NCBI GenBank assembly: GCA_000165345.1
Contig: CM000434.1
Coordinates: 448,001 to 512,000, forward strand
Reading direction: 5' to 3'
Length of the DNA stretch: 64,000 nucleotides
This document shows, piece by piece, positions 251-61,446 of this stretch. A program made the translations under genes and the position numbers. Position 1 is the first letter of the stretch; each line of letters opens with the position of its first letter. Below the pieces are notes generated by a model that did not search any database, was not told the origin of the DNA, and saw nothing but the letters and a program-made list of their open reading frames with translations.

Positions 251-429
251 CCCACATGGAAAGCTAATCTATTCCCCACTTAATTGTGTGGAAATGTGCT
301 CGTAACGCCCCACCGAAGTGAATGGAAAATTTGTTTTAGTATTTTTTGTCGCATGCTCGAACACTAAATAAGGTTAAAACAACTAATTCGTAATATTAAT
401 TGGGTCTTAAATTCCAATAATCATAAATA

Positions 430-2841: not shown

Positions 2842-3004
2842 ATAATAGGCTTCAGAGTTCATGGTTTTTAATCAAGTCTTTTAAAATATTTTTTATGCTT
2901 GGTTTTAAGTGTTAATTAGGTGATTCGGTAATTTATTCTTCCACACAGTACACACGCTTAGACCGCCAACTCAAATTGACATTTAAAATTTCTTATCCAC
3001 TGAA

Positions 3005-13270: not shown

Positions 13271-13485
13271 TTATTAAAATTATAAGCTTTAACTTTAAGA
13301 ACTATTTCCAATGTTTCTAAGTGATTTATTGTGTTATATTGAGATTAAATTAATCATAATAAAGACTAAAAGCCGCAAATTTATTCACTACTTTATGTTA
13401 TAGCAATTTTTCGGCGCATATAATACGTGTAATAATACCGATTGTTAAATATCGCACATTTCTTATATAAAGACATTCAATAATC

Positions 13486-14106: not shown

Positions 14107-14139
14107 GCTCTAAAAGAATAATCCTTGATTAAATTAACA

Positions 14140-40000: not shown

Positions 40001-40310
40001 TTAAGTCATTTTTTATTGTATTTATTAATAATCTAAGTAATTCTAAATTTCCCCTGTAAATTAATGAAGCAGCGATATAACCACATTGCTTAAATTCGAA
40101 AATATTTGAGCTAACCAACTCTAAAATTTCAAGCCATCCAAAGTCAATTTCATACCCCATTACGCTTATGTATGCTAATCTCCAAATTATCTTTTCTTTA
40201 TCCTTGAGAGATAATTGAGGACCTTTTTTGGAGCTATCATCTGTCTTCTCCAAAATAGATTTTAGATTAGAAATCTCATATTCAACTAATTCCATATTAT
40301 ATTTATACAA
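37005..40310 (-). CDS. Adaptor protein (AP) complex large subunit, adaptin family (alpha/gamma/delta/epsilon type; exact complex unresolved)
   Basis: 1101 aa. The N-terminal adaptin trunk signature 'ISNLKSIL...EKIIWRLAYISVMGYEIDFGWLEILELVSSNIFEFKQCGYIAASLIY' aligns with the conserved 'MLGYD..FG...L..S..F.EKR.GYL' block of AP large subunits. 'WLQVKLIEILELF' matches the adaptin 'PWLQ' motif. Its length fits an epsilon or delta subunit. Confidence 0.7.
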   Translation of the reverse strand: MYKYNMELVEYEISNLKSILEKTDDSSKKGPQLSLKDKEKIIWRLAYISVMGYEIDFGWLEILELVSSNIFEFKQCGYIAASLIYRGNLELLRLLINTIKNDLNNCFEVLVDKEKGSDKSRNFRQFSVGIGKNHSGKNIDIRKQKIKNCLLALNFIGNSPTLDFADNLFIDIKKLAEIPVEKQLNDTNIIRSKAICCLTKLFQCCPDRLRANEWGERLLSYFQFERNADCLISQCVFIKNSLKYYLNTEYLEPTENAYKNLNEQETDHSVLRDEREIINSNLNIKLVKIWEFIVPNLIFTLSRIRLYKEIKNWRFHKIPMFWLQVKLIEILELFPEVINDYFVNYKMNKIMEDVFFNAIHAIKSVNECNLSFSSTFDEIEFLCIIGIAIEMTKYFNKICNQELSANIGHLVGKFIEGLLYADNKDYISISISLIFESKTNKAIQELVKKNLVTLLRFTCSFDEDTTLNLLNIFSYICNKNNWVFITKEILNGVLYKYILNPYKLNIEEIHNIQKGSSDCFFPEKTKTLLEEIILSVCYTIRRFSNKNEVSYKTINVLFQTLEKSFCNPNPGFEITENTLFQITDILFDSKLKIECTDLMEKVNESLGNDISTQKYVAIKSYKLLNKLKNRRDNFNPRSGIRWLCFILGEYGKLISSKVSIIKQVEILLIIHDILTIDSEDDHIPLLKSTILLSFTKLYCNSDHETQNRIYEILKIGVGNRGNCIGSPEFLNAIVANTQYSVTPINGNITPVNIPSENNSALRYRDQLLDGVFNHKKNSLLIPNQSNKYGDDGYCSRNTWLSLCLSNKGSLYNFSLLSIGFSNGSFKYSSGESTIIVKLGKNEKNRIFNIERISTFCEEKKLSVKSSNNSFPNIFDSTSQNLHVEVFSETNKGFDNEGKFEQRINLICNGPYLNPPMISLLIRAFSNTKDEVSEINEQMEEINTDSNYSKLICINFRLPVILTNFMAPTKKMGKKEFGNFWEKLTQSSVKGILGISSLEIPIFLQLLNFCVYSVMDSIDDPSVSTPMIYGGTSTLYLSNRKRIPCMFKIIPCNEHSESFREDKIHDNGKNEEPVEIRVRSSSLIVAKILKQIISTYILSNSN

Positions 40311-40899: not shown

Positions 40900-43800
40900 C
40901 TAAGTAATCTTTAATATCTGTTTAAGTTTAAACTCCATCGAATCTTCAATTTTTTTTTCGCATTCTGGTACGTTGGAGATTTCATCATTCTTTTTTATCT
41001 TATTCTCTATGTTTCTTGAATTTAGGTAGTCTAGCCCATTTTTCTTTTTATTGATATTAATTGACAGCAATGACTTTAATTCAACAGCTAAGGGATGCTC
41101 ATTTGAATTAATATGTCTTATTTCAGTTTTATTCTTCGTCTTTCGGCATCTTAAATCTGAGTCATTACAATTATTATTATTATTATTATTTACTTCAGAG
41201 CTATTTTGTTTATCTGTGATTGATATTTCTTTCTTTCCCATTTGCTTTAAACTGCTATTTTGATTTTTCAGCCAATAATAACTATAATTATCACATTTTT
41301 TTTTGCTTTTTTCCGCTTTATTATTAAACTGCAAATCAAAGTTTAATATTTGTTTACTTATTATTTCTAAATGATTTTCATCTTTAAGATTTTGAATACA
41401 TGGTAGCAAAGGAATACACTCTGAAGATTTAACACTAATGCCTCTTAATTTAGAGCACATACCGTTTAAATTGTTTGCATTAATTTGAGTTTCATCCAAC
41501 AAAATATCAATAATTGTTGACGGATAATATTCCTTGTTAACTTTTACTCCACAGCATACAGATACAACTGTTCCAACTGTTCCAAAGGGCAACAATCCAT
41601 CATTTGTATTTATATAAACTACCCTAGTCCCCAAAGGGTACCCAAATCTTGAAATTAATTTATTTATGCCAGAGTTAAACTGATTCTCTGACTGATAAAA
41701 ATGCTCATTCCTACATAATTTCGACAAATCTATATATTTATCATTTGTCTCGATTTGTGAATTTAGAATTAGTCTTTCCAATCTAGAAATTGTTGAAGGA
41801 AGCATTGTTGCTGAATTAGAACGTGAAGATAAAAATGGTAAATTTCTATATAATTTACCCTTAATTATCTTTATCATTACATTAAATTTGAAGTCTTGAT
41901 CTTTTGAATCAATCAAATCCGAGAAAATATCCTTGACATGTATTTTCTTTAAGTTAAATACGTTTTCAACCTTTTCATTGTTATTGTCAATATTAAATGT
42001 GTTTGAGCAAATATTTTTTCCTTCAGAATTTATTATGTGTTCATCTAACTCTCCCTGGTCCAATAATACCAAACTTTTAAAAATAGCCAAAACAAAACAA
42101 GGGAAAAGGTCTAAATATTCTAATATTGATTTTATTGCTTCGTTGCTAACAATAGGAGTCCCAAGTTCCACATTAGTATTCGATGATGTAATAAATGAAT
42201 TTTCATCTACGAATTTACTATATAAAGGTAAATAAAGCTTATTTTTTAATTTATTTTCAAATTTAAAAAGATTCATCGATATTTCTTGCAAAGTACTATC
42301 GTTGCACTTCACTTGAATTGGACCAATAATTAGTTTCTTAAGAAATAAGGTTGAAAAGCGCATATACTCAAGTGATTTAGTAGCATCTAATCCGCATTTT
42401 GTGTTTAAGCAATTTAACAAGGGTTTGTATATTATTTTTGCAACATCCTCAATAGAAAACCATTGTATTGAAGATAAGTCTTCCAAAGCATATTCAAAAA
42501 TTCTCTTTTGAAGTTGTTCCACTTTATTCTTGTTTTTTGGAATTCGAAATAGTACTAATCTTTGAGCTTCATCTACAATTGTGCCGATATATCCATAGTT
42601 TGGATTTTGTTTATTAATGCAAAGGAGCTTTTCACCTAAATTTATTTTACTAATCTGCTTAAAACGTTCAGCCTCACTCTCTTTTAAATCTGAATACAAT
42701 AATATTAGTGGTAGCAAATAGTGTTTTGATATTTTTGAGAAGTTAAATTCAACCTTGCCACTCTCAGTAATGTAACTGCTCTCAGCAACTCTAGCCTCAA
42801 CAAGACAATTTACTGGATCAGATATATCCTTCAGTTCAGCATCAAAATCTTTCAAGTCTAAAACTTCTTTGCAATTAACCAACTTTGAAATGGAAAGCAA
42901 TTCTTCATCAATATTCATTGAATTTGAGGGGGAAAGAACAATTCCTCGTTTCTTTAGAAGTGAATTTTCATTAAATAATAAACGAATAAACTCTTTAGGA
43001 TTGTTGTTAGGTTCAATAATAGGTTTTGTCAGCAGCTTCGGTCTTAGAATATATCTCAAAGTTTTTATTGAAACAAGCTCAGCAACCTTCATTCTAGGAT
43101 AGTCAACCAATATTCTTATACCTGGATTTCTTGTATTAATGGAAGGTAGAAAGAGATTATTTAAAAACTCCTTTGAAATATGAGATGAAGATATTGAGGA
43201 AAAAATTGATTCATTACTACTTTCAGTCCCAAAAACACTTATCCCAGAACTATAATAAATTCTATAAGGAATTCTGCAAAGGTTTGGGAACCAATCGAAA
43301 GGTAATATTGTATTATCTAGTAAATAATTAGGGAAGTTTGATACACCGTCAGGGAATGCCGGATGATAAAACGATTTTGAAACTACCTTCGAGTTAGTAA
43401 TGGAAGGTAAGTATAATTTCACTGTGCTTTCAATTTTAGGAGTAGGAAATGCATAGTTATCCAAATAGAAAATAAATGGTCTCCCTTCCTGATTTCTGGC
43501 TTTATCTTCGGTATCTAAAAACTCCGAACTATTGATAATTGATGAATGAGTATTTGTATTAGCATCAATTAAATTTTCTAATTCACTTGTACTTAAATAA
43601 AATTTATACCGATTTTTCAGTTCATATTCAAAATTAGTCTTTATTTTGATTTCAAAATTTCTAAAATCAGAGTCATAAAAACCACATTTTGAAAGAACAT
43701 ATGTAATTGAATCCAATAGAAGGAACTCATCAATAAAAGGAATTAATGTTACGCCACCCCAAGGAACCTTGACGCCTTCCATATCAACTTCAAAGTTAGC

Positions 43801-45666
43801 CGGATAAAAACTCAATAATGGTGAGTTTGGATTAGTAAACAGCTTCCTAAATGGCTTTGGTAAAAGATCCTTGCTATTTGAAGGAAGAACCCCCATTAGT
43901 TGCTCAAACGGTTGCAATGGATTTCCTTTAATAAACCGAAATGCTAACCCATTAAGCTCGATTTCCTCCGAATACATTGTGTGAACAAACATCAATTTAG
44001 AAGAACCATATTTAACAATATCATCTCTACTCAATGTTGAAATACTCTTATTTTGTAGCCAACAACTTAAAATAATGGCAATATCACATGCAAATGGCGC
44101 ATACCTATAAGGGTAATACCATCTCCATGAAGGAACACCTCTAAAATAATAATAGCTGACCCATTGCAAACCCTCAAGGTAACAAAAAACAATATCTTCA
44201 ATAGAATTAGTTGTTATCCTATTGGAATTCGTGTTAGATTTAATATTTGCTTGATTTTGAACATTTGAATTTTCTGGGAAAAACTTATCGATATTTATTG
44301 CCATTTTTACAAAGTAATATCTCCAACGCATAACTTCAAAATTTTCGGGTCTAGTTTCTTGCCACTTTGCCCTAAATTTATCTTGTTCTATAGAGTCTGA
44401 TTTCATAAACCTTGGAACACCTATTGAATCTGAACTAATTTTGTTTTGGTCTGGGATTACCTTTTTCCAATAATCTGGATTAGAAATACGTTTTTCAGCT
44501 TCTTCTTTCTCCGAAATAATATGCCAAATTAGAAACCGTAACAAATTTACATAATTGATTCTACCACAATCTTCGAGTATCCATGGAGAACTACTCAACT
44601 TCATTAAAAAAAAATGAGCCAAATACTTTCTATAACTACTTATTATCCTTGCTAGTCCTTGATCAACAGTGTGGAATGGGATATGAGGGAGAAAATCATT
44701 TCCAACAATGAAGCCTAAGATAATAAAATCGTCAATAAGGCGTTCTCCATCTATTAAAACGTTATCGAAAATACTAATTTGATCCTGTGAATCATTTTTC
44801 AGTCCAAACTTGTATCCGAAACATAAATTTAACTCCTCAACACTTAAATTTCTAGGATTTAAATCATTTATAATATAATCTCTTAAAATAGAGATATGCA
44901 GAAATTGAAACCTTTCCTTTGTGCAAACCGTTCTACTCTCATAATTTCTTGAACTTGAAAATTTTATTTCTTCCCTCAACAAAGAAAAATGTGGTTCATG
45001 AGAAGCAAGAGAAAGCATTATCAAATCAGCATCAAGGCCATACAAGCAATGAGTCGTGTTGTTATTATAGTCTCTTTGGGATTTAATACAACGTATGAAA
45101 TCCATTATTTTATGTTCGCCTTCACCAGGTACGTCAGCTCCACTTAAAACAACTTCTAAATGTTTCCATAATGGATCAGTATGTATTTGATGGTAAATAA
45201 AAAATTCCAGTTGTCTCCGCAACTCATGCATAAAAGTCGTACCAGGAGTTATACAATTCGAATCAAAAACGTTATTTTGTGTTGTATCAATAGAATTATT
45301 TTTCTCCATTTTCTTTAGAAACTCTGAATCCCTTGCAGACCTAAATCTTCTACTTCTTTGTTGATTCATTTTAGCTCTAGGAGCAACCCCATCAACTGCA
45401 ATATAAAGTAATTTCCTAGGTTTAGCTATGTATACCAACTTATTTATATATCTAAAAATAGCAGCCCAAATTTCTGGAGACCCTTTTTCAGATAAATTAA
45501 TCCCATTACTTGGAGTGCGCATTTCACTAGAATTCACACTATTGTGAGCAATTCCATTTACATCCAAATATAAATTATCAAATGGTGGTATAATTCCATC
45601 TGATATTTCCTCATTAATTTGAGGATACCTTTCTGATATCCATCTATAGAATCTCGAGATTCCCAT
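40900..45666 (-). CDS. 5'-3' exoribonuclease, XRN family (length suggests cytoplasmic XRN1-like)
   Basis: 1588 aa. The N-terminus 'MGISRFYRWISERYPQINEEISDGIIPPFDNLYLDVNGIAHN' matches the XRN catalytic N-terminal consensus ('MGVPKF(F/Y)RW..ERYP...FDNLYLDMNGI.H'). Acidic active-site residues are in the expected places ('LDADLIMLSL', 'GEGEHKIMDFIR'). Confidence 0.85.
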   Translation of the reverse strand: MGISRFYRWISERYPQINEEISDGIIPPFDNLYLDVNGIAHNSVNSSEMRTPSNGINLSEKGSPEIWAAIFRYINKLVYIAKPRKLLYIAVDGVAPRAKMNQQRSRRFRSARDSEFLKKMEKNNSIDTTQNNVFDSNCITPGTTFMHELRRQLEFFIYHQIHTDPLWKHLEVVLSGADVPGEGEHKIMDFIRCIKSQRDYNNNTTHCLYGLDADLIMLSLASHEPHFSLLREEIKFSSSRNYESRTVCTKERFQFLHISILRDYIINDLNPRNLSVEELNLCFGYKFGLKNDSQDQISIFDNVLIDGERLIDDFIILGFIVGNDFLPHIPFHTVDQGLARIISSYRKYLAHFFLMKLSSSPWILEDCGRINYVNLLRFLIWHIISEKEEAEKRISNPDYWKKVIPDQNKISSDSIGVPRFMKSDSIEQDKFRAKWQETRPENFEVMRWRYYFVKMAINIDKFFPENSNVQNQANIKSNTNSNRITTNSIEDIVFCYLEGLQWVSYYYFRGVPSWRWYYPYRYAPFACDIAIILSCWLQNKSISTLSRDDIVKYGSSKLMFVHTMYSEEIELNGLAFRFIKGNPLQPFEQLMGVLPSNSKDLLPKPFRKLFTNPNSPLLSFYPANFEVDMEGVKVPWGGVTLIPFIDEFLLLDSITYVLSKCGFYDSDFRNFEIKIKTNFEYELKNRYKFYLSTSELENLIDANTNTHSSIINSSEFLDTEDKARNQEGRPFIFYLDNYAFPTPKIESTVKLYLPSITNSKVVSKSFYHPAFPDGVSNFPNYLLDNTILPFDWFPNLCRIPYRIYYSSGISVFGTESSNESIFSSISSSHISKEFLNNLFLPSINTRNPGIRILVDYPRMKVAELVSIKTLRYILRPKLLTKPIIEPNNNPKEFIRLLFNENSLLKKRGIVLSPSNSMNIDEELLSISKLVNCKEVLDLKDFDAELKDISDPVNCLVEARVAESSYITESGKVEFNFSKISKHYLLPLILLYSDLKESEAERFKQISKINLGEKLLCINKQNPNYGYIGTIVDEAQRLVLFRIPKNKNKVEQLQKRIFEYALEDLSSIQWFSIEDVAKIIYKPLLNCLNTKCGLDATKSLEYMRFSTLFLKKLIIGPIQVKCNDSTLQEISMNLFKFENKLKNKLYLPLYSKFVDENSFITSSNTNVELGTPIVSNEAIKSILEYLDLFPCFVLAIFKSLVLLDQGELDEHIINSEGKNICSNTFNIDNNNEKVENVFNLKKIHVKDIFSDLIDSKDQDFKFNVMIKIIKGKLYRNLPFLSSRSNSATMLPSTISRLERLILNSQIETNDKYIDLSKLCRNEHFYQSENQFNSGINKLISRFGYPLGTRVVYINTNDGLLPFGTVGTVVSVCCGVKVNKEYYPSTIIDILLDETQINANNLNGMCSKLRGISVKSSECIPLLPCIQNLKDENHLEIISKQILNFDLQFNNKAEKSKKKCDNYSYYWLKNQNSSLKQMGKKEISITDKQNSSEVNNNNNNNCNDSDLRCRKTKNKTEIRHINSNEHPLAVELKSLLSININKKKNGLDYLNSRNIENKIKKNDEISNVPECEKKIEDSMEFKLKQILKIT
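41170..41190. repeat. (ATT)7 trinucleotide microsatellite encoding poly-Asn inside the XRN gene
   Basis: 'attattattattattattatt' corresponds to 'NNNNNNN' in the minus-strand ORF. Confidence 0.8.
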
Positions 45667-46190: not shown

Positions 46191-49100
46191 TTATGCAGCG
46201 TTACAAGTTGGCCCAATACATGTTGTTTCATATGACACAATTGGGGTCGTTATAACTTTCTTGACGCAACCTGTACTAGTTTTTTCTGTATTGTCTGGGC
46301 ATCTACTATCTGGTTTTGTTACCAAAACGCACTCCTTATTGTCAAACAAAGTATATGGATCATTGCATGTTAATGAGAATGGAGCATATTCAACAATATA
46401 GCATGTGCCATCTTGATCGGTAACATACCCAGATGGACAACTGGAAACTACTGGTGTAGATTCTATCTTTTCACAACCACCGGATGGGCACACCTTAGGT
46501 GCGAATCTTGCGCATCTATCACCCAATAGTTGACTATCAGCTGTACAGCTTAATGAATATGGAGCAAAAACTTCTCTTGAACAAACAGTTGTCCTCACAA
46601 TGCTTACTTCCTGAGTAACTGCATGATGATGATGATGATGTCCTAGAGCGTGATGATGTCCAGAACTATGATGTGGATGATTTGAAGCTGTTCCTAAAGA
46701 CCTTCTGGTTCCTTGGGCAACTCCAGCCTCCATTGTGTAACCCGGTGGGCAAACAAGCTCTGGTGGGAATGTTCTTATTCTCTCGCAATCGCCATTTGGA
46801 CAGACTTTATCTGCATATTTTGCGCACTTATCGCTGATAACTATTAATCCAGGTGGGCATGCCAATTCATAATCTGCATATTCATTAGCAATACACCTCT
46901 GTCCACTTCTCTCAAAGTTTTGAGGACAAGAGAGAATTGGTGGTATATAACTGATTCTTTCACAATTGTTGTTTGGACAAACCTTTGCTGTTGATTGTTG
47001 GCACATATCTCCCAATAATCTGAATCCATCTGGACATTGTAGTGCATATGGCTCATAAACATTTCTCATACATTGACTTGCTCCACTGGCTTTATGACCA
47101 TGGGATCTGATTGCAACACCAGCCTGAGGTCTATAATATCCAGGTGGGCACTCCATCGTTGGTGGTGAACGAATGAGTTGTTCGCAGTTTCCATCTGGGC
47201 AAACTTTAACAGTATGGATCGCGCATTTATCTCCGATTATTGAATAATTATCTGGACAAGAAAGGTCATAAGGTGTATATATTTGTTTTGTACACTCTTG
47301 TAATAACTGGTTTCCATGTCCATGTCCATGTCCTGCATGATCTGAATGATGATTTGATTGTGGTCTAGTAAATCCAGGTGGGCATACCATATTGGCAGGT
47401 TTACTTATCAATCTCTCGCAGTTACCATTTGGACAGATTTTATTTGTAAACAATGCACATCTATCCCCTAATAACACGAACCCTGATGAACATACTAAAC
47501 TATACTCTTCAAAAATAGTTCTAACACATTCTGCTGAAGGTGTTGAATAATGATGTGTTCCGGCGGTATGCTTGCTTGAAATTGCTGTTTGAATTCCGTT
47601 GGCATTTCTGTAACCTTGTGGACATGAAAGAGTTGGTGGAACGACGACTTGTTTTCTGCAGTCACCTTGTAGACAAATTTTTTCTGTTTTTTCGATACAT
47701 TTGTCGCCATCTAAAATAAATGGAGATTCGCATTTTAAAATATAAGGTACTGAAATTGTCTTAATGCACTCAGGGGAAGCTAGATTTCTGTGATGATGAT
47801 GATGATGATGATGATGTCCTTGATAAATTGTGCCGGTTTGGTAAACTGGAGTTGGATAAGTTGTTAAAATTTCCTGTGTTTGATGAATTACTTGTGGCTG
47901 ATAATTTACTTGTCTTTGTTGAATTACTTGTGGTTGGTTAATAGTTTGTGGTTGGACGGGAACAGAAACATTTGGATGGTTAATATGAGAATGGCTTATT
48001 GGCTGAATTGGTTTAGATGATGAGAATCCTGGAGGGCATACTAATTCAGCAGGCTCATTATATATACGCTCGCAATTACCATTTGGACATATTTTATCCG
48101 AATATGTAACACATTTATCCGCTACAAGTCTTGATCCAACAGGACAGATAAGATTATATGGAGCATGGTCTGCATGGATGCATTTCATTTGCTGAATAGG
48201 AGCAACAACTGGAACTGGTTGTGGTGGCTGAGAAATTACAGGAGTATATTTATGTCCATGAGAATATCCCTTTTGAGAAGTAGATTGAACCCCAGCTAAG
48301 TGTCTGTGGTGTGGATGAGCAGAAATATTCATAACTTCATCTATTTGGTGATATCCAGGGGGACAAGTTAAAGAAACAGGCGCAGTTACAACTCTTTGGC
48401 AACTTTCATTCGGGCAAACTTTTTCTCTTGTGGTAGCGCATTTGTCTCCAACCAATGCATATCCTGCAGGGCATGCAAGATCATATGGTGAATATTTGTT
48501 AACTTGACATTGAGATCCTACATCTACAGAACCTGGCGGACATTTTAAAGTAGGTGGAGTTTTTACAAACTTAGCACACTCTTTTGATCTTGTTCCATCT
48601 TGACAAATTGCTTCTAATGGGTAGTAATTTGTTAATACACATTCTTTTCCTACAAGTTCAGCATTGTTCTCGCAAATAGGCACAGCTGGGACAGAATCAG
48701 CTTTTGTACAAGTTTTTGGGGTAATTTTTGGAACATCTTCACAAATTGGCCTTGGAGCCTCTTTATGATGTTGTGTATGTATATTCTGGGTTTGAATTGG
48801 TATAACTTGTGAATGTGAATGCCCATGAGAATGACCATGATGATGTCCTGGATTTTGTATCTCAGATGTTTCATAAACTGTTGATGTTTCTTTTGCAGCT
48901 GCTAATCTTCTTAGTGCTTTAACATCAGGTGTTTTACACTCTGTAACATAAGTTGTTACTGAACAGTCATATTGGCTTCTTCTAACACATTGTTTACCTG
49001 TTTCCAATGAATAACCAGGTGGGCATTCCAAAACAGGCGAACTAATCGATCTCTCTACGCAAACGTCCCCCTCTCTAGTACCAACAGGACAAACGTATTG

Positions 49101-51062
49101 AAGAGCCCCGGGAACAAGTCTTGTGCACGAGTCTCCATCCAACGCAGAACCTGGAGGACATTCTGGTGTTTTTGGTGAGGTAGTTGTTTGAACACACTGT
49201 TGATTTTGTAGAGTGAATCCAGTAGGACATACAGTTGAAGCAGGAGAAAATTGGATACAATCGTCTCCATTTGGTAAAAATCCATCTGGGCAGATAGCAT
49301 CGATCATTTTTAGTGCAGTACATTGATTTCCTTGAAGTTTATATCCTGGTGGACATTCTGAAACAGGAGGTGCTTCTTTTATTTGCTCGCATTGGGATCC
49401 AGAAAGTGTATATCCAGGTGGGCATTCTCTGTTTGGTGCGGAGAAAGAAGCACAATTTGTACCATTATCAATAAAACCAGTTGGACATACCATATTTATC
49501 CTTTCAACTTTTTGGCATTGTCCATTTACCAGGTTTGTACCTGGAGGACACTCTGGTTGTGGTGGAGCTTGAGTAGTTTGGGTACATTGTTTTCCAATTA
49601 ATACAAAACCTGTTGGACACTCCTTTTCTGGTTGAGAAAACTGAACACAGTCTGATCCATTGTCGAGATATCCAGGTGGACAAATGGCATCTTCTAGTTC
49701 ATATGAAATACAACTGTTATTTTCCAAGGTTGTACCTGGTGGGCATTCTGTTAATCTTGGAGCAGATTCTGTTTTAACACATTGTTTTCCGGAAAGAGAA
49801 AATCCTTGGGGGCAAATTTTCTCTGGTGCAGAAAATTGGACACAATCTTCGCCATTATCTACAAACCCTGGTGGACAAATTGTATCAACTCTTTCTATCG
49901 ATTGACATTGATCATCTTTTAAAATTGTACCTGGTGGGCATTCGAATTCCATGGGAGCATTTACCATTTGAACGCACCTGTTCCCACTCAATGTAAACCC
50001 GGGTGGGCATTCCTTTGTGACTGGAGAATATTTTACACAATCTTTTCCATTGTCTAAAAATTCTGGTGGACAGATAGCATCGATTGCTTGGACTGAAATA
50101 CAGGCATTATCTTGTAATACTGTACCTGGAGGGCAGACAGGTTGAGTTGGAGCAGAACTAGTTTGTATACATTGGAGGCCTTGTAAAATGAAATTTGGTG
50201 GGCATTCCTTTGCAGGAGCTACATATAGTACACAATCATCTCCTGAGTCTGTATATCCTGGTGGGCAGACCATATCAATATTTTTAATCACTTTACATTT
50301 TCCATTTTCAAATATTGAATTAGGTGGGCATGTCGATTCTAATTCAGCTGATTCTGGTGCCATACATTGTTGTCCTGACAAATTGAATCCAGGAGGACAG
50401 ATTTTATTTGCAGGGAGATATTGAACACATCTATTTCCTTCTTCAACAAAACCAGAAGGACAAACGGTATCAATTTGTTGAATTAATTTACATGTGCCAT
50501 TCTCCAGTATAGTGCCTGGAGGACATTCTGGATTAGGAGGAGCTGTGTCTGATTGAACACATTGTTTTCCAGAAAAAACGAATCCTGGGGGACATGATTT
50601 TTCAGGCATAGTGAATGCAACACAATCTCTTCCATTATCTACGAAACCAGGGGGACATACTGTATCTATCATATGTTTAGAGATACACTCTGTTCCATGT
50701 AATGTAGTACCTGGAGGACAAGATGGTTGTTGAGAAGCGGTTTTAGTAGCAGTACATTGCTTTCCTGATATTTCGTATCCTGGTGGACATTGCTTTAGTG
50801 GTGCTGTTACTATTAAACAATGCCCCTCGTGATAGATTGCTGGTTCCTGACAGAAAGGCATAGGAGGAACCTGGATACGTTGGACACAAACTCCATTCTC
50901 CATTAAATACCCTGGAGGGCAGCTTTCTAGCGGAGTTTCAACATACGTAGGTACCTGGCCTTTTGTGTGTGGCAAAGGGGAAGCTACACCAGGAATGTTG
51001 GGTTTAACCTGAGGCGCACCAAATGCACCAATAATAAACGACAATAATAAAATACGTTTCAT
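46191..51062 (-). CDS. COWP1: Cryptosporidium oocyst wall protein COWP1 (cysteine-rich type I/type II repeat protein with His-rich tracts)
   Basis: 1623 aa. Signal peptide 'MKRILLLSFIIGAFGAP'. Dozens of 'CPPG(Y/F/T)...C' cysteine-repeat units in two arrays, plus His-rich tracts ('HHHHHHHHH', 'HGHSHGHSHS'). The published COWP primers cry-9 (50090..50114) and cry-15 (reverse complement at 50621..50642) match exactly. Confidence 0.9.
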   Translation of the reverse strand: MKRILLLSFIIGAFGAPQVKPNIPGVASPLPHTKGQVPTYVETPLESCPPGYLMENGVCVQRIQVPPMPFCQEPAIYHEGHCLIVTAPLKQCPPGYEISGKQCTATKTASQQPSCPPGTTLHGTECISKHMIDTVCPPGFVDNGRDCVAFTMPEKSCPPGFVFSGKQCVQSDTAPPNPECPPGTILENGTCKLIQQIDTVCPSGFVEEGNRCVQYLPANKICPPGFNLSGQQCMAPESAELESTCPPNSIFENGKCKVIKNIDMVCPPGYTDSGDDCVLYVAPAKECPPNFILQGLQCIQTSSAPTQPVCPPGTVLQDNACISVQAIDAICPPEFLDNGKDCVKYSPVTKECPPGFTLSGNRCVQMVNAPMEFECPPGTILKDDQCQSIERVDTICPPGFVDNGEDCVQFSAPEKICPQGFSLSGKQCVKTESAPRLTECPPGTTLENNSCISYELEDAICPPGYLDNGSDCVQFSQPEKECPTGFVLIGKQCTQTTQAPPQPECPPGTNLVNGQCQKVERINMVCPTGFIDNGTNCASFSAPNRECPPGYTLSGSQCEQIKEAPPVSECPPGYKLQGNQCTALKMIDAICPDGFLPNGDDCIQFSPASTVCPTGFTLQNQQCVQTTTSPKTPECPPGSALDGDSCTRLVPGALQYVCPVGTREGDVCVERSISSPVLECPPGYSLETGKQCVRRSQYDCSVTTYVTECKTPDVKALRRLAAAKETSTVYETSEIQNPGHHHGHSHGHSHSQVIPIQTQNIHTQHHKEAPRPICEDVPKITPKTCTKADSVPAVPICENNAELVGKECVLTNYYPLEAICQDGTRSKECAKFVKTPPTLKCPPGSVDVGSQCQVNKYSPYDLACPAGYALVGDKCATTREKVCPNESCQRVVTAPVSLTCPPGYHQIDEVMNISAHPHHRHLAGVQSTSQKGYSHGHKYTPVISQPPQPVPVVAPIQQMKCIHADHAPYNLICPVGSRLVADKCVTYSDKICPNGNCERIYNEPAELVCPPGFSSSKPIQPISHSHINHPNVSVPVQPQTINQPQVIQQRQVNYQPQVIHQTQEILTTYPTPVYQTGTIYQGHHHHHHHHHRNLASPECIKTISVPYILKCESPFILDGDKCIEKTEKICLQGDCRKQVVVPPTLSCPQGYRNANGIQTAISSKHTAGTHHYSTPSAECVRTIFEEYSLVCSSGFVLLGDRCALFTNKICPNGNCERLISKPANMVCPPGFTRPQSNHHSDHAGHGHGHGNQLLQECTKQIYTPYDLSCPDNYSIIGDKCAIHTVKVCPDGNCEQLIRSPPTMECPPGYYRPQAGVAIRSHGHKASGASQCMRNVYEPYALQCPDGFRLLGDMCQQSTAKVCPNNNCERISYIPPILSCPQNFERSGQRCIANEYADYELACPPGLIVISDKCAKYADKVCPNGDCERIRTFPPELVCPPGYTMEAGVAQGTRRSLGTASNHPHHSSGHHHALGHHHHHHAVTQEVSIVRTTVCSREVFAPYSLSCTADSQLLGDRCARFAPKVCPSGGCEKIESTPVVSSCPSGYVTDQDGTCYIVEYAPFSLTCNDPYTLFDNKECVLVTKPDSRCPDNTEKTSTGCVKKVITTPIVSYETTCIGPTCNAA
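46623..46640. repeat. (ATG)6 / (CAT)6 microsatellite encoding a His tract in COWP1
   Basis: 'atgatgatgatgatgatg' on the plus strand corresponds to HHHHHH in the minus-strand ORF. Confidence 0.8.
47791..47816. repeat. (TGA/CAT)n about 9-unit microsatellite encoding the H9 tract of COWP1
   Basis: 'tgatgatgatgatgatgatgatgatg' corresponds to 'HHHHHHHHH' in the minus-strand ORF. Confidence 0.8.
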
Positions 51063-51316: not shown

Positions 51317-54300
51317 TTGGAATGTGTTTTTTCAATAATTTTTGATCGGATTGTAAATTTATTGGATAAAACCAATCAATTTTTTGGGCGCAATTTTCAG
51401 AGATGGATTACATTAACATTAAATATTATGAATACTGACATACTTGAAAGTAGAAATAATAGAAGGCCAAGATATGTTTCAATTAGCTTAAATAATGATG
51501 AATTAACACATTTTTGTCCATTCTTATCTGATAATGATGAAAAAGTCCTGTTTACGTTGACATGCAATTATCTTTCTTTGGGACAATTTGAGTTAGCAAG
51601 ATCAAGCATACTTCAGCTAAGTTCATTAAACTTTAGAAAGGTGTCTGAGCTACTTTATTCCATAATTTATTATGGTCCTCCCCCAGACTGGCAGCTTTCT
51701 GTCACAATTTCTACATCAGCACATTTTATACTTGCATGCATAAGAGAATATGAATCATTTTTCAGAAATAATACTAAAATTGAAAACTACATAATTAAAA
51801 GGACTGAGTTTGATTTATTAATTGGGCAAATGATAGCGGATATCTCCGATGTTAAAATTAGTTTTGAAATAATTAAGAAATTAAGAAATTTTTATTCCGT
51901 TTTTTTAATTAATGGACTTGACGTCAAAGTTCCAGAACTGAAAATCTTGCCAAAAATTGTTGGATTACCTTCTTATCTTAGCAGGCTTCCTTCATTTTCG
52001 ACAAATTTGAACAAATTATCTGAAAATTTATTGATTGACTTGGCAAATAATCAAGGAAAGTATCTTTCGATTAAAATAATTAATGAAATGTTTGAATGTT
52101 TTAATACATCTCGGAGATATTTTATTAAAATCGCAAAAATACTAATTATGGATCATTCGAATACATTAAAATTCGAGACTAGTTTGATCAAAGACAACTC
52201 AATACTTAAAAATACATTATCTTCTATCAATGTTAGCTTAAATTGGATTGGATTGAAGAATTGCATTATTGATCTGATTTTTTTCAAGGAAAATTGTGGA
52301 ATAATATCCTTAAATTCGCTTGGAGATATGATTTCAAAAAATATTTCAATAATTAAATTAGAAGATATTTTCGAAAATCATGATTTAGAGCTTACTAATT
52401 TTACATATGAAAAAGATGTTTCATCAAAAAACAACTTTACTAAAAATAAAAAGCCAGAGGATGTTATTTCAATAGTATTTATGATATTTTGCATAATAAA
52501 TCTATTTTGTAAATATAAACTGAACAAGGAGATTTTTCTTAAGTTTTTAGCTGACCAAATTGAAATTTTAAAGTCTTGTGAAGATATTTGTAACACATGT
52601 ATATTTGACTCTAGAATAATTTCAAATGTTAAAAGTCTATTTTCAGAAAATCTTCTTAAGCAATTAAGTAATTTTCAAAGCATTCATCAATACTTAAATG
52701 ATATAAATACAGTTAAATTTTTCGAAAATGATACTTATTCTGATCATATTGGAACACTTGTTAATTCAAATTCCGACCAAAATTTATTGTTTAAAATTGT
52801 TTTGGAATTTGACAATATTTTGTTTAATATTAATTTTGGAATAAGTAATTCTTTGGGAATTTTTTCATTACCAAGATATATTGAGAATAAAAATAAAGTT
52901 ACTTTAAATCCTATTTTAACTTACGATTTTTCAATAAATTGTAAATTTGATGAAAAGCCTTTTTTTTGGTGCGAATATTTAAGGTATTTAAATTTATCTA
53001 GAAATAAGTTTGAAGAGCTGCCCATTATTTTTATAACAAATTTATTTGACAAGATTTATAAAACCAAAAGAAATATTAATTCTTTTGAGTCTGCAAATAA
53101 AATTATTCTTTGTTTCCCACATTTAAGAGCAATTTGCGTTCATCTTGGGATGAAAAACGATCCTATTTTTAATTGGGAACTACTTAAGAACATCTGGTTG
53201 CCATTTAGATTAATTAGCAAAAACGAAGAATCACTTGTTGAGAGCAAATCTTTGGAACTCGATCTAGATGAAATATCAAGAAGACATGCAATTTCCATGT
53301 TTATTTCGGAAGAACTTAATTCGAATTTTTGCAGCGAGTTTAGATATAGTTCAAACAAAAATATTAGAAAAATATTTGAAGAAATAACTCTTAAAAAATC
53401 AATTATAAATTATTATTTTGATAATTTTAACTCTTCCAAAAAGTACACAACAATAAATTGGGTTTCACTGGAAGCATTTATTTCAAACATAATTTCTCTT
53501 CCACTAACAATTGGTAGTGATATTTCGTTATTAACAAAAGAAAGAGACTGCATAAAATCATACTTAATACAAAAAGAAGTTTTCGAGACAATTGATGGAA
53601 AGGGAAGTTCAAGCTTTGGGTTAAATTTACAGAACACATCTATTGAAATTGGAAATATTCAAACTGAATACTTTCATAATGAATTAATGTATTGTTTTTT
53701 TTGCCGAATTTTTATTTATTTAAAGAAAATTAAAATAAACAATTCGATTATTCATACTAAAAACAAAAAATTATTCAACATCACACAATTGTTGTACTAC
53801 TTATTTATTTGGAGTGATAGATTATCCAGAAATTTTCAAATTGAAATGCTTCCAGTTATTGAAAAAACTTTTGAAAAAACAATTTTGATGATTGAATTGA
53901 TATTATTTTCATTTCCATTTAATATTCCAAACTTGCCACTACCAAAAAATTTGGAAATTTTTTCTTGGTGGTATCGCTTTATTTTATCAACCCCATCAAG
54001 AGTATTCAATACAGGGAAAACAATAATCCGCTCAAGTAAAAGTTCAGAATATTTTCAAAATTTGTTTAAAGTTAGATGGGTTATTCGCGGAATTTATGAA
54101 AATAATCCATGGTATTCAAATTTATTTAGTTTTGAATCATTTTGTGTTTTAAATTATTACAACAATTCGACTAGAAATAATTACTCAGAAATATTACTTT
54201 TTCCTTCTATTCTTATTCTAAAGCTATTATCTATTCAGAACTATGAAAAATCTATTGAATTAATATTGAGTTCAAAATTTCACGTAAATATAACGCTAAT

Positions 54301-56365
54301 AGTTCTGGACGGTTTTATTTTCCATTCACTCTTTGAGGAAGAAGTAATTAATAATTATTGCAATATTAACAAAATTTATGGAATAATTAAAAACGCGAAA
54401 ACTGAAAGATTAACGAAACTTGATTTATTAAATATTAACAAGATTTCTTTATTTTCGGCAATGGAGGTATTTTCTATATATATTCAAACAAAATTTATCG
54501 ATAATGAAAATGAGATAGGCTGGATATTTTATGCTTTTCCTAAACTATATCAAGCATTCGTATTGATAGATCTCTATATTTGTTTTGGAAATAAAAATTC
54601 CTCAAATTTATTTGAAGATATAGCGAAGGCTAGAGATATGATAGAACAGTACACCAGTAATTTAAATATTAAATACAAGTCAGTGGTTCAAACTACTTTA
54701 GACAGACTTTTTATATTTTATCAGTCTTCCAGCACAATTTCTTTAACAAGATATATAATGGAGATAGATACATTACCAAATCAAAGTTCTCAGATAAAAA
54801 CTCATTTAAGCAGAATTCATGATAGAAAATTAATAACTACAACGTTAACTCAGTCATTAAATTATTTATCTGGCTTTTCTTTAATTAAACCACAAGACGA
54901 AAGTTTAATTAATATTAATCAAATTTTGGAACAAAGTTTATTTTCAAATTTTAATAACTCTAGCTATCTATTTTCAGTAATTCATTATATAAAGTCTATC
55001 ATTTCAGAGTTATTTTTAAATCTGGATAAGCACAAAGCATTTCCAATTTTAGCATTGACTCCAAATGAAATAATTTCCTACTCTTTCTTTGAAAGAAAGT
55101 TAAAAGGAGGTAGTAAGAGACTTTCGAGAATAATGAACGCAGACTTGATCTCTGTTATAATTAAAGCTCTTAATTGTTTTCATTGCTCAACATCAATGTT
55201 CAGGAACAGTGAAATTAGCTCACATAGTGATATGGAATTTCTAATTAAACAGCTTGATCCATTTAAGGGAACATTTGCAATGTTGTCCCACAATATTTTA
55301 CAGTCTAAAGATGTACAATATAGCTATTTTATATGGAAATTCGCCGTCAAGAATCGAATAAACTTTAGTCTTGAAAAAAAACAAATTATTCTAATTTCAT
55401 TGGAATACCGTATCTGGAAATACGATATACATAAGCAGCTTGAATCTAAAATATTTAATGCCAATATAGATAAGTTATCTGGATTCTTTACATCTAAATC
55501 TTTGGAATACTATAATTATTTATTAAAGTGGCTATCGATAATAATTACATTTTTTTCTCTAAATTGTAATGATTTACATCTTATAATGAATAAATTTGAT
55601 AAAACTATTGGTTTAATTAATTATTTATTCCCAATTTATTCTATTAGTCGTACTAATACTGTTGACAAAATTTTGTTTCAGTTATCCAGAGAAATGTTGA
55701 GAAATCAAAATATAATCAACCTACATTTGAATAATTTTAAACGAATAATAAAATTAAATAATCCATATTATCTTTATAGGTTAATAACTAGAGCTCAGGG
55801 AATATCAGATCCATATTTTATTTTGTCAATCATTGAAGTTACTAGCAAAAGTATAAAAAATAGCTATTCTGGAATTAAAAATTCTAAATCAAATAATTTC
55901 AAAAGTAAATTTATTGAAGAAAATATCTATGTAATTTTAAATGTCCAAAGGCTATTTTGTATTTCATATATTAAACATTTTAAAAATAATAGCGATATAT
56001 GGAATGAGTGGTTCATTTTGATTAAAAAGTGGGAAACAACGAAAGGTATAATATCAATGTTGAAATACTCAATAGAAATGAAGATGTTCAGTATAGCAAA
56101 AATTATATCTCAACAATTGCTATTTAAAGTTATAAAGCATTGTGGGGATGTTCAATATACAGAAAAAGAATTGAAACATTTTTTTTCTGGGGATAACTTT
56201 TTTGAAGAAATAGGAAAAGATAATAATTTCAATAATTTTTCTTTAGTTTCAATTGTCAATTATATTATTACAAATATTAGAGATGACAAATTTTTCAGAA
56301 ATATAACTTTATTAAATTATCTAAAGCTGTTGTTTCAAAATGGATTGGTAGTTTCGAAAGTATAA
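51317..56365 (+). CDS. Large (1682 aa) hypothetical protein (possibly the N-terminal part of a roughly 2700-aa gene together with 56413..59409)
   Basis: Uninterrupted 5-kb ORF, N/I/K/L/F-rich, with no recognisable domain. It terminates at 56363..56365 while the downstream ORF's frame is already open from 56287. Confidence 0.6.
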   Translation: MECVFSIIFDRIVNLLDKTNQFFGRNFQRWITLTLNIMNTDILESRNNRRPRYVSISLNNDELTHFCPFLSDNDEKVLFTLTCNYLSLGQFELARSSILQLSSLNFRKVSELLYSIIYYGPPPDWQLSVTISTSAHFILACIREYESFFRNNTKIENYIIKRTEFDLLIGQMIADISDVKISFEIIKKLRNFYSVFLINGLDVKVPELKILPKIVGLPSYLSRLPSFSTNLNKLSENLLIDLANNQGKYLSIKIINEMFECFNTSRRYFIKIAKILIMDHSNTLKFETSLIKDNSILKNTLSSINVSLNWIGLKNCIIDLIFFKENCGIISLNSLGDMISKNISIIKLEDIFENHDLELTNFTYEKDVSSKNNFTKNKKPEDVISIVFMIFCIINLFCKYKLNKEIFLKFLADQIEILKSCEDICNTCIFDSRIISNVKSLFSENLLKQLSNFQSIHQYLNDINTVKFFENDTYSDHIGTLVNSNSDQNLLFKIVLEFDNILFNINFGISNSLGIFSLPRYIENKNKVTLNPILTYDFSINCKFDEKPFFWCEYLRYLNLSRNKFEELPIIFITNLFDKIYKTKRNINSFESANKIILCFPHLRAICVHLGMKNDPIFNWELLKNIWLPFRLISKNEESLVESKSLELDLDEISRRHAISMFISEELNSNFCSEFRYSSNKNIRKIFEEITLKKSIINYYFDNFNSSKKYTTINWVSLEAFISNIISLPLTIGSDISLLTKERDCIKSYLIQKEVFETIDGKGSSSFGLNLQNTSIEIGNIQTEYFHNELMYCFFCRIFIYLKKIKINNSIIHTKNKKLFNITQLLYYLFIWSDRLSRNFQIEMLPVIEKTFEKTILMIELILFSFPFNIPNLPLPKNLEIFSWWYRFILSTPSRVFNTGKTIIRSSKSSEYFQNLFKVRWVIRGIYENNPWYSNLFSFESFCVLNYYNNSTRNNYSEILLFPSILILKLLSIQNYEKSIELILSSKFHVNITLIVLDGFIFHSLFEEEVINNYCNINKIYGIIKNAKTERLTKLDLLNINKISLFSAMEVFSIYIQTKFIDNENEIGWIFYAFPKLYQAFVLIDLYICFGNKNSSNLFEDIAKARDMIEQYTSNLNIKYKSVVQTTLDRLFIFYQSSSTISLTRYIMEIDTLPNQSSQIKTHLSRIHDRKLITTTLTQSLNYLSGFSLIKPQDESLININQILEQSLFSNFNNSSYLFSVIHYIKSIISELFLNLDKHKAFPILALTPNEIISYSFFERKLKGGSKRLSRIMNADLISVIIKALNCFHCSTSMFRNSEISSHSDMEFLIKQLDPFKGTFAMLSHNILQSKDVQYSYFIWKFAVKNRINFSLEKKQIILISLEYRIWKYDIHKQLESKIFNANIDKLSGFFTSKSLEYYNYLLKWLSIIITFFSLNCNDLHLIMNKFDKTIGLINYLFPIYSISRTNTVDKILFQLSREMLRNQNIINLHLNNFKRIIKLNNPYYLYRLITRAQGISDPYFILSIIEVTSKSIKNSYSGIKNSKSNNFKSKFIEENIYVILNVQRLFCISYIKHFKNNSDIWNEWFILIKKWETTKGIISMLKYSIEMKMFSIAKIISQQLLFKVIKHCGDVQYTEKELKHFFSGDNFFEEIGKDNNFNNFSLVSIVNYIITNIRDDKFFRNITLLNYLKLLFQNGLVVSKV

Positions 56366-56412
56366 TTGGATTTTTAAATAGTAATATTGGTATAGATGAA
56401 AAATATATTATT

Positions 56413-59409
56413 TTGGATGCCTATATTAATTCACAGAACTCTTCATTAGATGCCAATCGTATCAATATATTAAAGACTATACTGACTTCCATAAAATTGG
56501 TAAAAGACCTTAGGATGAGTAATATTCAAGCGTCCAATTTATTTTCTCCATATTTAATTATTAGGATGGCAATTATGTCAAGGAATAGTAGATTGATTGA
56601 AATATTAAAGAGAGATATTGATATTTTTCTAAAATCCGGGGATGTTTTATTAAATTTAATTGAAGAGTCATTTGGAATTATTGACGATAAACAGATACTA
56701 AAGGAAAAGATAAAAAAATCTTATATTTTTGGGCAAGCTGACATAAATTCGTGTATAAAATTATTTCCAATGATTGAAAATAATATTAAATTATGTTTAA
56801 ATATAGAAGATATTCCATCATACAACAATGATATATATTTTTCTATCAAACTGATTTCTATTATACCTAAAAAAAAAACAATGAGTGATCTTTTATTTAG
56901 TATCTCTAACAAGATATCAAACCAGCTTTACAGAATATTTAGAAATTCTATTTCAGATAATTCATTAATCCGCACAAGGTTTGAATGTAGTAATTCGCAG
57001 CTTTGGGTTGCTGAGGAAGGTTCATTAAAAATAATTCCTAACAGCCTACATCCTTTTTCCAAATTTTCAAAAGCAAAAAGAAACTCGTATTATATCAAAA
57101 ATCGGTGTCTAAATAAATATAAGAGCGGATTAAATATAAATTTAGAAAAGAGTTATAATAATAGAAATGAAATCAACATAGAAAATATTTCAAAATCAAG
57201 AATTTTATTTAGAAATTTATTTGTTTTATTAACTTGGGCAAGCGATTATATTGGGAAAAGCGAATTTAGCAAATCAATTAAAAGCTTAACACATTTATTT
57301 GAAATTTGGCAAAGGAATCCTGCATTATCATTCTCTTTGAAAGATTTTGTGTATATAAGTGATTATGTTATTCTAGTTCTAGTTTTCTCTGACCAAATAA
57401 AGATATTAAAAGATTTGAGTGAAAATAATATTCTTGAAACAAATATGAAGCCTTTAGATAAAAATCATGAACCAAAAAATTTAATTATTTGTAACATAGT
57501 TGCAAATTCAATTACAATTTCAAGAATGAACCAGTATTATAACGGAAAAAGTGACCATTCAAATCCCACTACCCTAAATGCATCTAAATCGAGAAATGAA
57601 ATGATAATGGATATATTTTGCAATAAATGGAAGATTAATAGAGGAAAAGTGACCAATATTGAAATTTTAAAGGGCAACACAGTGAGGATTATTGAAAATC
57701 TTTTACTTCTAAAGCCTGATATCTTGAATTTAAGTATTTTAATAATAATATTAACTTACCATTCATGGGGAAAGCTTCAAATGTATATTAGTGGGCAAAT
57801 AAAACGTATGTTACACTTTCCATGCGCATCAATATTAAATTTTAAATTTTTCAATTCAATATTTGAATTATATGAACAATTATTTATCTCAAATGTTAAA
57901 ATTAGAATGAATGAAATATATACAATTTCAGATTTAGTTTCAAACTGGAAAGATTTTTCTGTTGGAATTGAAAATAATTCAGATTTTTTTGAAAATTCTA
58001 ATGATAATTTGAGTTTGTCATATACCACATTTTTTTTAGAGAGAATAACAAATTCTATTAAAAAAAACTTATTCTTAAAATATAAAAAAGCAATTAAAAT
58101 GATAAAATGCATTCAAGTAAAAAAATTGAACAATATAATAATTTATTTTAACCAAAAAAAAGTGAACAACAAAAAATTCTTTCAACTTGACTTCATTAAT
58201 CACTTATTAATACAAAGTACTCCAAATCACTATTTTTTAATAAATACTTTTGTAAAATTAAATCTATGGTGGGAATTAATGGTTTACATTCTAAGATGGA
58301 GTTTTGAGCTTGGACCTTCCAAATCGAGATCTTTATTAATAGATAAAAGACGTGAAATACGAGCAAACAGTGAAAAAACTTTTGAAGAGATATTTTTTGA
58401 CCTGGTTATAAAAAAAGCTCATTCAAAAGGCCAATTAAATTCTCTGATCAATGCAATGAATGAAGCCGTACCATTGGGAGGCCCAAGAGCCGCTATAGTT
58501 GTGAAAAAGTGCAAAAATGCAATACAAAAATACTTAGAATGTAGTGGGGCTTTGGAAATGTTATATAGATCTTTTCTATCACTTTATATTTCAATTGAGA
58601 TTCCTCACGCACTTATGGGGGCAATAGCAATCCATCTTTCACTTCTAGACCATTTAAATATTGATTCAAGGACTGGATACTTAGAATCAGCTTTGTACCA
58701 TTTCAAAAATGCAAATTTGGTATTGAAAAAAAAAGTTAAGTCAGGAGTAATTAAAAAGAACAAACATGCATCTCCAACAAACTGTATTGACTGCGAAAGA
58801 ACTGCAGAAGTCCCATTTCTTTCTCAAAATTTGAATATTGGGAAATTAAACGACGTACTTATTCCATTTATCGCTGATATTCCAATTTATAAAATTAATA
58901 TTTCTCCTTGGGGTGGTCTTTCATTGCCAATAATACAAAGAATAATCAGATTAGTCGAGCTGCAAAATTCGATTATTAAACTCTTAATAAAAGAAAATTC
59001 ATCAATGTCAATTTTAAGTCCAAATTATAAGGATAGAAGAAATGTTATAGTAGTTCTCTTTCTTATTCGTGAATATCCTCTTGCATTTAAGACTTCTAAC
59101 ATGCTTGAAATACCATTGATGGAAATTTTGGTGCATGCGACTAAAGAACTGATAGTTTCTTATCCAAACAGCAATTCTCTTTATTGTTTTCTGGATTCAA
59201 TGAAACTATGGCTGTCAGAATACGACTCGGATGCACTAATATCAAATGCAATAAATATGTGGATCTCGGAAAAAAAAATAAATCTTAATAATATCCCAGA
59301 ATTAGAAAAAAACAGTATAATGGAACTCGTTAATAGGCTGTCAAACCCTTTGAGCAGAAGCGAAGCATTTAAAATGATAAATCCTTTGGAAAGAGTTAAA
59401 TTAAGTTAA
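56413..59409 (+). CDS. Large (998 aa from first TTG/ATG) hypothetical protein, possibly continuous with the upstream 1682-aa ORF
   Basis: Same strand and the same amino-acid composition as the upstream ORF. Its reading frame is open back to 56287 and overlaps the last 26 codons of the upstream ORF. The track's start at 56413 is a TTG codon; the first ATG is further downstream. The real start is therefore uncertain. Confidence 0.5.
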   Translation: MDAYINSQNSSLDANRINILKTILTSIKLVKDLRMSNIQASNLFSPYLIIRMAIMSRNSRLIEILKRDIDIFLKSGDVLLNLIEESFGIIDDKQILKEKIKKSYIFGQADINSCIKLFPMIENNIKLCLNIEDIPSYNNDIYFSIKLISIIPKKKTMSDLLFSISNKISNQLYRIFRNSISDNSLIRTRFECSNSQLWVAEEGSLKIIPNSLHPFSKFSKAKRNSYYIKNRCLNKYKSGLNINLEKSYNNRNEINIENISKSRILFRNLFVLLTWASDYIGKSEFSKSIKSLTHLFEIWQRNPALSFSLKDFVYISDYVILVLVFSDQIKILKDLSENNILETNMKPLDKNHEPKNLIICNIVANSITISRMNQYYNGKSDHSNPTTLNASKSRNEMIMDIFCNKWKINRGKVTNIEILKGNTVRIIENLLLLKPDILNLSILIIILTYHSWGKLQMYISGQIKRMLHFPCASILNFKFFNSIFELYEQLFISNVKIRMNEIYTISDLVSNWKDFSVGIENNSDFFENSNDNLSLSYTTFFLERITNSIKKNLFLKYKKAIKMIKCIQVKKLNNIIIYFNQKKVNNKKFFQLDFINHLLIQSTPNHYFLINTFVKLNLWWELMVYILRWSFELGPSKSRSLLIDKRREIRANSEKTFEEIFFDLVIKKAHSKGQLNSLINAMNEAVPLGGPRAAIVVKKCKNAIQKYLECSGALEMLYRSFLSLYISIEIPHALMGAIAIHLSLLDHLNIDSRTGYLESALYHFKNANLVLKKKVKSGVIKKNKHASPTNCIDCERTAEVPFLSQNLNIGKLNDVLIPFIADIPIYKINISPWGGLSLPIIQRIIRLVELQNSIIKLLIKENSSMSILSPNYKDRRNVIVVLFLIREYPLAFKTSNMLEIPLMEILVHATKELIVSYPNSNSLYCFLDSMKLWLSEYDSDALISNAINMWISEKKINLNNIPELEKNSIMELVNRLSNPLSRSEAFKMINPLERVKLS

Positions 59410-60353: not shown

Positions 60354-61429
60354 TTAATTTCTCTGAGTCCTTCCAAAACTTACCTTTGAATATAGGGATA
60401 TTAGTGCTGTTTCTACTTTAAGAATTCTATCTCCCATATTCACGACTTTGAATCCCATTGTAATTAAGTCTGTCAATTCTTCTTTTGTCCAACCTCCTTC
60501 AGGTCCAATAGCAAGGATAATTGGTCCAGTGTGGCTTTGTAATCCTATTTCAGTAATCTTGCTGTTGCCTAAGACATCAGCAACAATTCCAATCATGCTT
60601 TCTTTGCAAAAAAAATAATTCCTAATATTGTTAATGTTTAACAAAAAGGAAGTAAAGTTTCTTACCTTAAATGCTGTAGAAAAAATGTCCAAGAAGCATA
60701 AACATAAACATCTGGGCACAATGTTTTTGATGCCTGTTCAAGCCCAAGCTGTACAATTTCATCAATAGACTCTTTTTTTAACTTGGATGAATTTAAATAC
60801 GACTTTTCGGATTTATCAGTACAAACAAAAATTATTCTTCCAACTCCAATTGTAACCGCATTTTGAAGTACTTTCTCAAACACTTTTGGTCTAGGAAGTG
60901 CAATTAATAAGTCGATTAAGGGGTAATCATGTTTATATTCCTCTTTATGAATTTCTGTATCTAACTTAATTGTAACTGCATATTGAAAATTATTTAAATT
61001 ATTGATTTCCGAAATAGATCTTCTGGATCTATTATTTACTTTATTACCTATTTCTTCAATGCTAGATAAGTTAATTATTGATTCTGATTTGGTTATTCCA
61101 TCTTTATTAGTTTCTTTTCTCATTATTTTGGTTACTGTTGCAGTTCCTTTTCCAGAGTTTTTAACTCCAACATTAACTTTTGAGCCAATATTAATTTCCA
61201 GAACTGAGATACAATGATTGGACTGTCTGGAGGATAGCTCAACAGTTAGGTCTTCATTAATATCCTTTTTATCAATAATGATTAAGTTCATTAGAATTGA
61301 TGGAAAAATGACCATTATGGCGGTATGATCTGCATTAAGACTGGATCTTCTCGCATGGTGCATAAGAAAGATACGATCACATAATAAAACTAAGCTAACA
61401 AAAGATTGGGTTTCGTATTGAAAGATCAT
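60354..61429 (-). CDS. RsmE-like SPOUT-class RNA methyltransferase (16S rRNA m3U1498 methyltransferase family), two exons
   Basis: Exon 1 is 61429..60666 and exon 2 is 60621..60354 (minus strand). The 44-nt intron 60665..60622 has donor GTAAGA and acceptor ATATTAG. Splicing joins '...LGLEQASKTLCPDVYVYASWTFFLQHL' to 'RNYFFCKESMIGIVADVLG...IGPEGGWTKEELTDLITMGFKVVNMGDRILKVETALISLYS'. The last stretch matches the RsmE C-terminal motif 'iGPEGGf..eE......GF..vsLG.RILRtETAa'. The track shows this as two overlapping ORFs in different frames. Confidence 0.75.
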
Positions 61430-61446
61430 TTATTTTTTATTTGAAA

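Follow-up and report, generated by a model that had tools for sequence, protein, structure and literature searches.

The classical cry-15/cry-9 target of COWP1 in a 64-kb window of Cryptosporidium parvum chromosome 6

The window, the whole stretch of 64,000 nucleotides of DNA analysed here, is Cryptosporidium parvum chromosome 6, and the 553 bp flagged within it are the classical cry-15/cry-9 target in COWP1 (cgd6_2090), an assignment that we regard as practically certain. The species call is firm because it is founded on whole-locus identity and an exact protein match, and not on the RFLP of the COWP amplicon, which narrows the choice without identifying the species and supports only the wording 'C. 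parvum-like'. The gene, the marker and the genome are all already known, and what we describe is a well-established diagnostic target within a reference genome, with no new biology. The analysis confirms the COWP RsaI fragment sizes directly from the sequences of several reference genomes. It also underlines that C. parvum and C. tyzzeri are not told apart by the 413/106/34 pattern, and it gives the other features of the window a taxonomic reference point.

The COWP locus was compared with Cryptosporidium genomes, as the initial annotation had proposed, and C. parvum proved to be the nearest, above C. tyzzeri, C. hominis and C. meleagridis. Identity to the window was distributed as follows:

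36191-61061, CP029785.1, CP141123.1 and BX526834.1 (C. parvum): 99.996%, 24871/24872 aligned positions, 0 mismatches and one 1-bp indel
36191-61061, two other C. parvum-type sources (L004 and L002): 99.96%, 8-9 SNPs per 24.9 kb, same amplicon
About 10.9 kb around COWP1, C. tyzzeri: 98.3%, 170 mismatches against 0 for C. parvum
About 10.9 kb around COWP1, C. hominis: 98.0%
About 10.9 kb around COWP1, C. meleagridis: 94.4%
About 10.9 kb around COWP1, chipmunk genotype I: 87.9%

Look-ups with other window proteins showed that positions 1-15434 and 7283-32313 (together 1-32313) are 100% identical to, and colinear with, C. parvum chromosome 6. Against CP029785.1, on which the window lies at about 445,164-509,163, the comparison comprises 0 mismatches and 1 indel over ~57 kb, with positions 32314-36190 and 61062-64000 outside it and ORFs crossing both boundaries, and against BX526834.1 there are likewise 0 mismatches over the two fetched stretches (~40 kb). 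The G+C content is 30.2%. The initial annotation had taken the window for a C. parvum-like Cryptosporidium genome, and at 99.996-100% identity this reading can be stated more precisely as C. parvum chromosome 6.

The gene that carries the marker is encoded on the minus strand, and ORF re-derivation returned for it the same coordinates that the initial annotation had given:

46191..51062, minus strand: COWP1 (cgd6_2090) CDS, a single intronless exon of 1623 codons plus stop

By exact-sequence look-up, the 1623-aa protein of the window is residue-for-residue and over its full length the deposited CpCOWP1 [Cryptosporidium parvum], and the identical protein is held under accessions CAD98498.1, QOY41089.1, WKS78318.1 and KAL5368082.1, where it is also named 'Oocyst EB module wall protein'. 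In the collection, 58 blocks contain the exact protein, which was present on 24 contigs read. Compared with COWP1/cgd6_2090 of C. parvum as known from Spano et al. 1997, a member of the nine-gene COWP family, the window shows no difference, with 1623/1623 residues identical and the same flanking genes. An older GenBank model (EAK90135.1/XP_627569.1) has 1629 aa and is labelled partial; it differs in the annotation of the start, not in sequence. As cgd6_2090 is COWP1 in the literature (PMC6877471, PMC7840661), the exact protein match also bears out the earlier naming of the gene as C. parvum cgd6_2090.

The protein contains 124 cysteines at a median spacing of 11 residues. In its N-terminal half, over the first ~700 residues, CPxG motifs are spaced at a period of 65 aa, and His-rich tracts are located in the C-terminal half. 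The 65-aa CPxG-periodic repeats are presumably the type I repeats of Spano et al. 1997. Pfam returned only cEGF-like fragments (cEGF, 51.7 bits). Judged by eye, the N-terminus (MKRILLLSFIIGAFGAPQ) resembles a signal peptide and a transmembrane domain is absent. The COWP family is described as having a signal peptide, no transmembrane domain and a cysteine at every 10th-12th residue (PMC12548878), and as far as can be read from the sequence COWP1 of the window matches this description, including the cysteine periodicity. COWP1 originates from female gametes, is stored in wall-forming bodies and is deposited in the oocyst wall (PMC12548878, PMC6877471), and cgd6_2090 is used to mark the oocyst wall and female gametes (PMC6877471, PMC7840661, PMC12548878). 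With its role taken from this literature, COWP1 would be a secreted, cysteine-rich and disulphide-rich structural component of the inner oocyst wall.

All primers of the assay, including those of its nested version, have their sites within this gene:

50090..50114, plus strand: cry-9 primer site, exact match, the reverse primer in the gene's sense
50621..50642, minus strand: cry-15 primer site, exact match, the forward primer relative to the gene, covering the VDNGRDC codons of the repeat motif
50090..50642, minus strand: 553-bp cry-15/cry-9 amplicon, CDS nucleotides 421-973, codons 141-325
49973-50000, plus strand: BCOWPR site, exact match
50714-50741, minus strand: BCOWPF site, exact match
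49973..50741, minus strand: 769-bp outer product of the nested COWP PCR, BCOWPF and BCOWPR

The primer cry-9 (GGACTGAAATACAGGCATTATCTTG, 25 nt) has a single exact match in the window and 0 in 100 dinucleotide-preserving shuffles, and cry-15 (GTAGATAATGGAAGAGATTGTG, 22 nt) likewise has a single exact match in the window. The two sites are convergent and give the 553-bp product, so that exact primer matching reproduces both sites and the product size as they had been reported at the outset. The sequences of cry-9 and cry-15 are those printed in PMC8000384 and PMC11033538, with which the expected product size agrees, and the sequences of BCOWPF and BCOWPR were taken from the same two papers. The amplicon spans ~2.8 of the 65-aa repeats of COWP1.

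Two near-copies of cry-15, each with 3 mismatches, are also present on the minus strand at 50036-50057 (encoding LDNGKDC) and 49841-49862 (encoding VDNGEDC), located 585 and 780 nt downstream of the cry-15 site, which are multiples of the 195-nt repeat. They exist because cry-15 anneals to DNA encoding (V/L)DNGxDC, a motif that recurs in the 65-aa (195-nt) repeats. Sharing the orientation of cry-15 and being downstream of cry-9 with respect to the gene, they cannot yield a product with cry-9.

The digest of the amplicon was derived from the positions of GTAC, considered together with those positions at which related species gain a site:

50122..50125: GTAC (RsaI), source of the 34-bp end fragment, common to all species tested
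50228..50231: GTAC (RsaI), source of the 106-bp fragment, found in C. parvum, C. hominis and C. tyzzeri and lost in C. meleagridis (GTA>GTT at 50229)
50494..50497: where C. meleagridis has an RsaI site of its own, GCAC in the window when read in the gene's sense, base 50496, codon 189 GGC vs GGT
50512..50515: position of the extra C. hominis RsaI site, GCAC in the gene's sense in the window, diagnostic base 50514

Within the amplicon GTAC starts only at 50122 and 50228, and blunt cutting (GT^AC) yields fragments of 34, 106 and 413 bp, in agreement with the digest predicted by the initial annotation from the same two sites. Neither the hominis site (284+129) nor the meleagridis site (372/147) is present in the window. 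About 1.9 GTAC sites are expected from the composition of the amplicon against 2 observed; their number, being close to the compositional expectation, is therefore uninformative, and the informative part is that the site positions are identical to those of the reference C. parvum genomes. Set against the known COWP PCR-RFLP assay (cry-15/cry-9 with RsaI, nested in BCOWPF/BCOWPR), the window shows no difference, with 4/4 primers exact, products of 553 and 769 bp and a 413/106/34 digest.

A search of the available papers for printed full sets of 413/106/34 and 284/129/106/34 found none, and the patterns were instead derived from reference genomes. In PMC8000384 the C. parvum COWP RsaI pattern is given as '413 bp and 129 bp', which disagrees with the sequence-derived 413/106/34; 129 bp is a C. 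hominis fragment.

In-silico PCR and RsaI digestion were carried out on five C. parvum sources, two C. hominis assemblies, C. tyzzeri, C. meleagridis, a meleagridis-like assembly and chipmunk genotype I. The five C. parvum loci, fetched via the exact protein, comprise three chromosome 6 records and one other record from NCBI, plus one Logan assembly. The predicted patterns, with the differences from the window amplicon, are:

Five C. parvum sources: 413/106/34, 0/553 differences
Two C. hominis assemblies: 284/129/106/34, 7 differences
C. tyzzeri: 413/106/34, 8/553 differences, primers matching perfectly
C. meleagridis and the meleagridis-like assembly: 372/147/34, 21 differences
Chipmunk genotype I: 266/147/106/34, 40 differences, 4 primer mismatches in all

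In the alignment all seven differences between the C. parvum and C. hominis amplicons (7/7) are synonymous. The diagnostic one is base 50514 of the window in codon 183, which is GGC in C. parvum and GGT in C. hominis, a synonymous change that turns GCAC into GTAC, and the C. meleagridis pattern is likewise explained by GGC>GGT at codon 189 together with the loss of the 50228 site. What underlies the marker is neutral substitution at third codon positions in a conserved stretch that encodes repeats, and the site changes are directly visible in the alignments. The species-diagnostic value of the assay derives from a few synonymous third-codon-position differences that create or destroy GTAC between primer sites conserved among the intestinal species nearest to C. 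parvum; GGC at codon 183 leaves the 413-bp fragment of C. parvum uncut, and GGT supplies the GTAC that divides it into 284 and 129 bp in C. hominis. The pattern of 284/129/106/34 bp that the initial annotation had given for C. hominis was reproduced in both assemblies of that species. Its description of the window's pattern as C. parvum-type stands in so far as all five C. parvum sources give 413/106/34, but the pattern is not unique to them, since that of C. tyzzeri is identical; the RsaI pattern alone therefore says 'parvum-type' and cannot separate the two species.

Given this overlap, a close relative with the parvum-type pattern, such as C. tyzzeri (mouse genotype I), is the obvious candidate for an alternative source, its genome giving exactly the fragments of the window with both primers perfect. 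Such a source is nevertheless highly improbable, as the C. tyzzeri amplicon departs from that of the window at 8 of 553 positions, including a non-synonymous change (V309F), its 10.9-kb locus carries 170 mismatches where C. parvum has none, and its COWP1 has 1620 aa against 1623 in the window. C. hominis, or a species with the hominis pattern (C. cuniculus, C. ubiquitum), can be dismissed with still greater assurance: the C. hominis orthologue sits at the same locus in identical gene order, with perfect primer sites and the 553-bp product, but its protein has 1620 and not 1623 aa, the GGC>GGT change at codon 183 adds an RsaI site (284+129) that is missing from the window, and the amplicon and the locus (98.0%) both diverge. 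Hominis-type RsaI sites are also reported for the cervine genotype (PMC2732472), from which the window pattern differs. Altogether, C. tyzzeri, C. hominis, C. meleagridis and chipmunk genotype I were ruled out as source by digests, amplicon differences and locus identity.

Within C. parvum, to which the DNA is thus assigned, the COWP RFLP is blind to lineages, and the sources L004 and L002 share the amplicon of the window while carrying 8-9 SNPs per 24.9 kb, so that a lineage or subtype family other than the IOWA-type reference, for example the anthroponotic IIc lineage, deserves consideration. The gp60 subtyping primers had no match in the 64-kb window, gp60 (cgd6_1080) being located elsewhere on chromosome 6. 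BX526834 is presumably the sequence that Bankier et al. 2003 obtained for chromosome 6 of the IOWA isolate. With 0 mismatches both to CP029785.1 (~57 kb) and to BX526834.1 (~40 kb), another lineage is very unlikely, and an IOWA-type genome is the simplest reading.

The surroundings of COWP1 agree with the assignment to C. parvum chromosome 6. All C. parvum records and four related species have the same arrangement, with an XRN exonuclease, an adaptin and CNOT1 to one side of the gene and a 2660-aa protein to the other. The neighbours are eukaryotic, including, besides the XRN 5'-3' exonuclease, adaptin and CNOT1, also STT3, a protein with an AMPK beta-type carbohydrate-binding domain, a ribonucleotide reductase large subunit, a kinesin and ORC. 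The features of the window are therefore to be read as apicomplexan and not bacterial, as had been argued before, and because C. parvum chromosome 6 belongs to a compact genome with few introns, the other features of the window are to be read with apicomplexan gene models. Genes placed in the window include:

430-2841: ribonucleotide reductase large subunit
3005-5434: GT2 glycosyltransferase
25447-27615: STT3
28991-36985: CNOT1
37005-40310: adaptin
40900-45666: XRN exonuclease

Genes are densely packed in the window (1-64000), and long ORFs run without interruption on both strands. No Pfam hits are on record for the long ORFs at 6167-13270, 14140-17175 and 17283-22313.

Over positions 36191-61061, the window departs from the three best C. 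parvum records only in lacking one A at 56287 (GATGACAAA in the window vs GATGAACAAA), a deletion that falls into the gene on the other side of COWP1:

51428-59409, plus strand: 2660-aa gene adjoining COWP1, no Pfam domain, split in the window by the deletion at 56287

The frameshift leaves 1619 residues in the native frame, followed by 26 out of frame and a stop at 56365, and the remainder of the gene appears as a separate ORF at 56413-59409. This gene is annotated as a single product of 2654-2660 aa in C. parvum, C. hominis, C. tyzzeri, C. meleagridis and chipmunk genotype I, with the continuity of the ORF checked in one C. parvum record (L001) and represented by gene calls elsewhere. The deletion is probably a base-calling or assembly error in the source assembly of the window; that it is real we consider unlikely. 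A real deletion would imply a C. parvum line with a truncated large protein (1619 + 26 residues) that has no Pfam domain and is intact in every other Cryptosporidium genome examined. As the deletion is absent from the three other C. parvum assemblies, the window comes from a different assembly or isolate.

Public annotations of the identical chromosome 6 sequence also disagree on the gene adjoining COWP1, giving it as 2660 aa, as 964+1646 aa or as 974+1412 aa (L003 and L005 compared with L001). The 1646-aa model ends at 56365, which is the end of the frameshifted window ORF, and has a span of 4939 nt that is not a multiple of three, which suggests that its annotation was transferred from an assembly with the 1-bp deletion.
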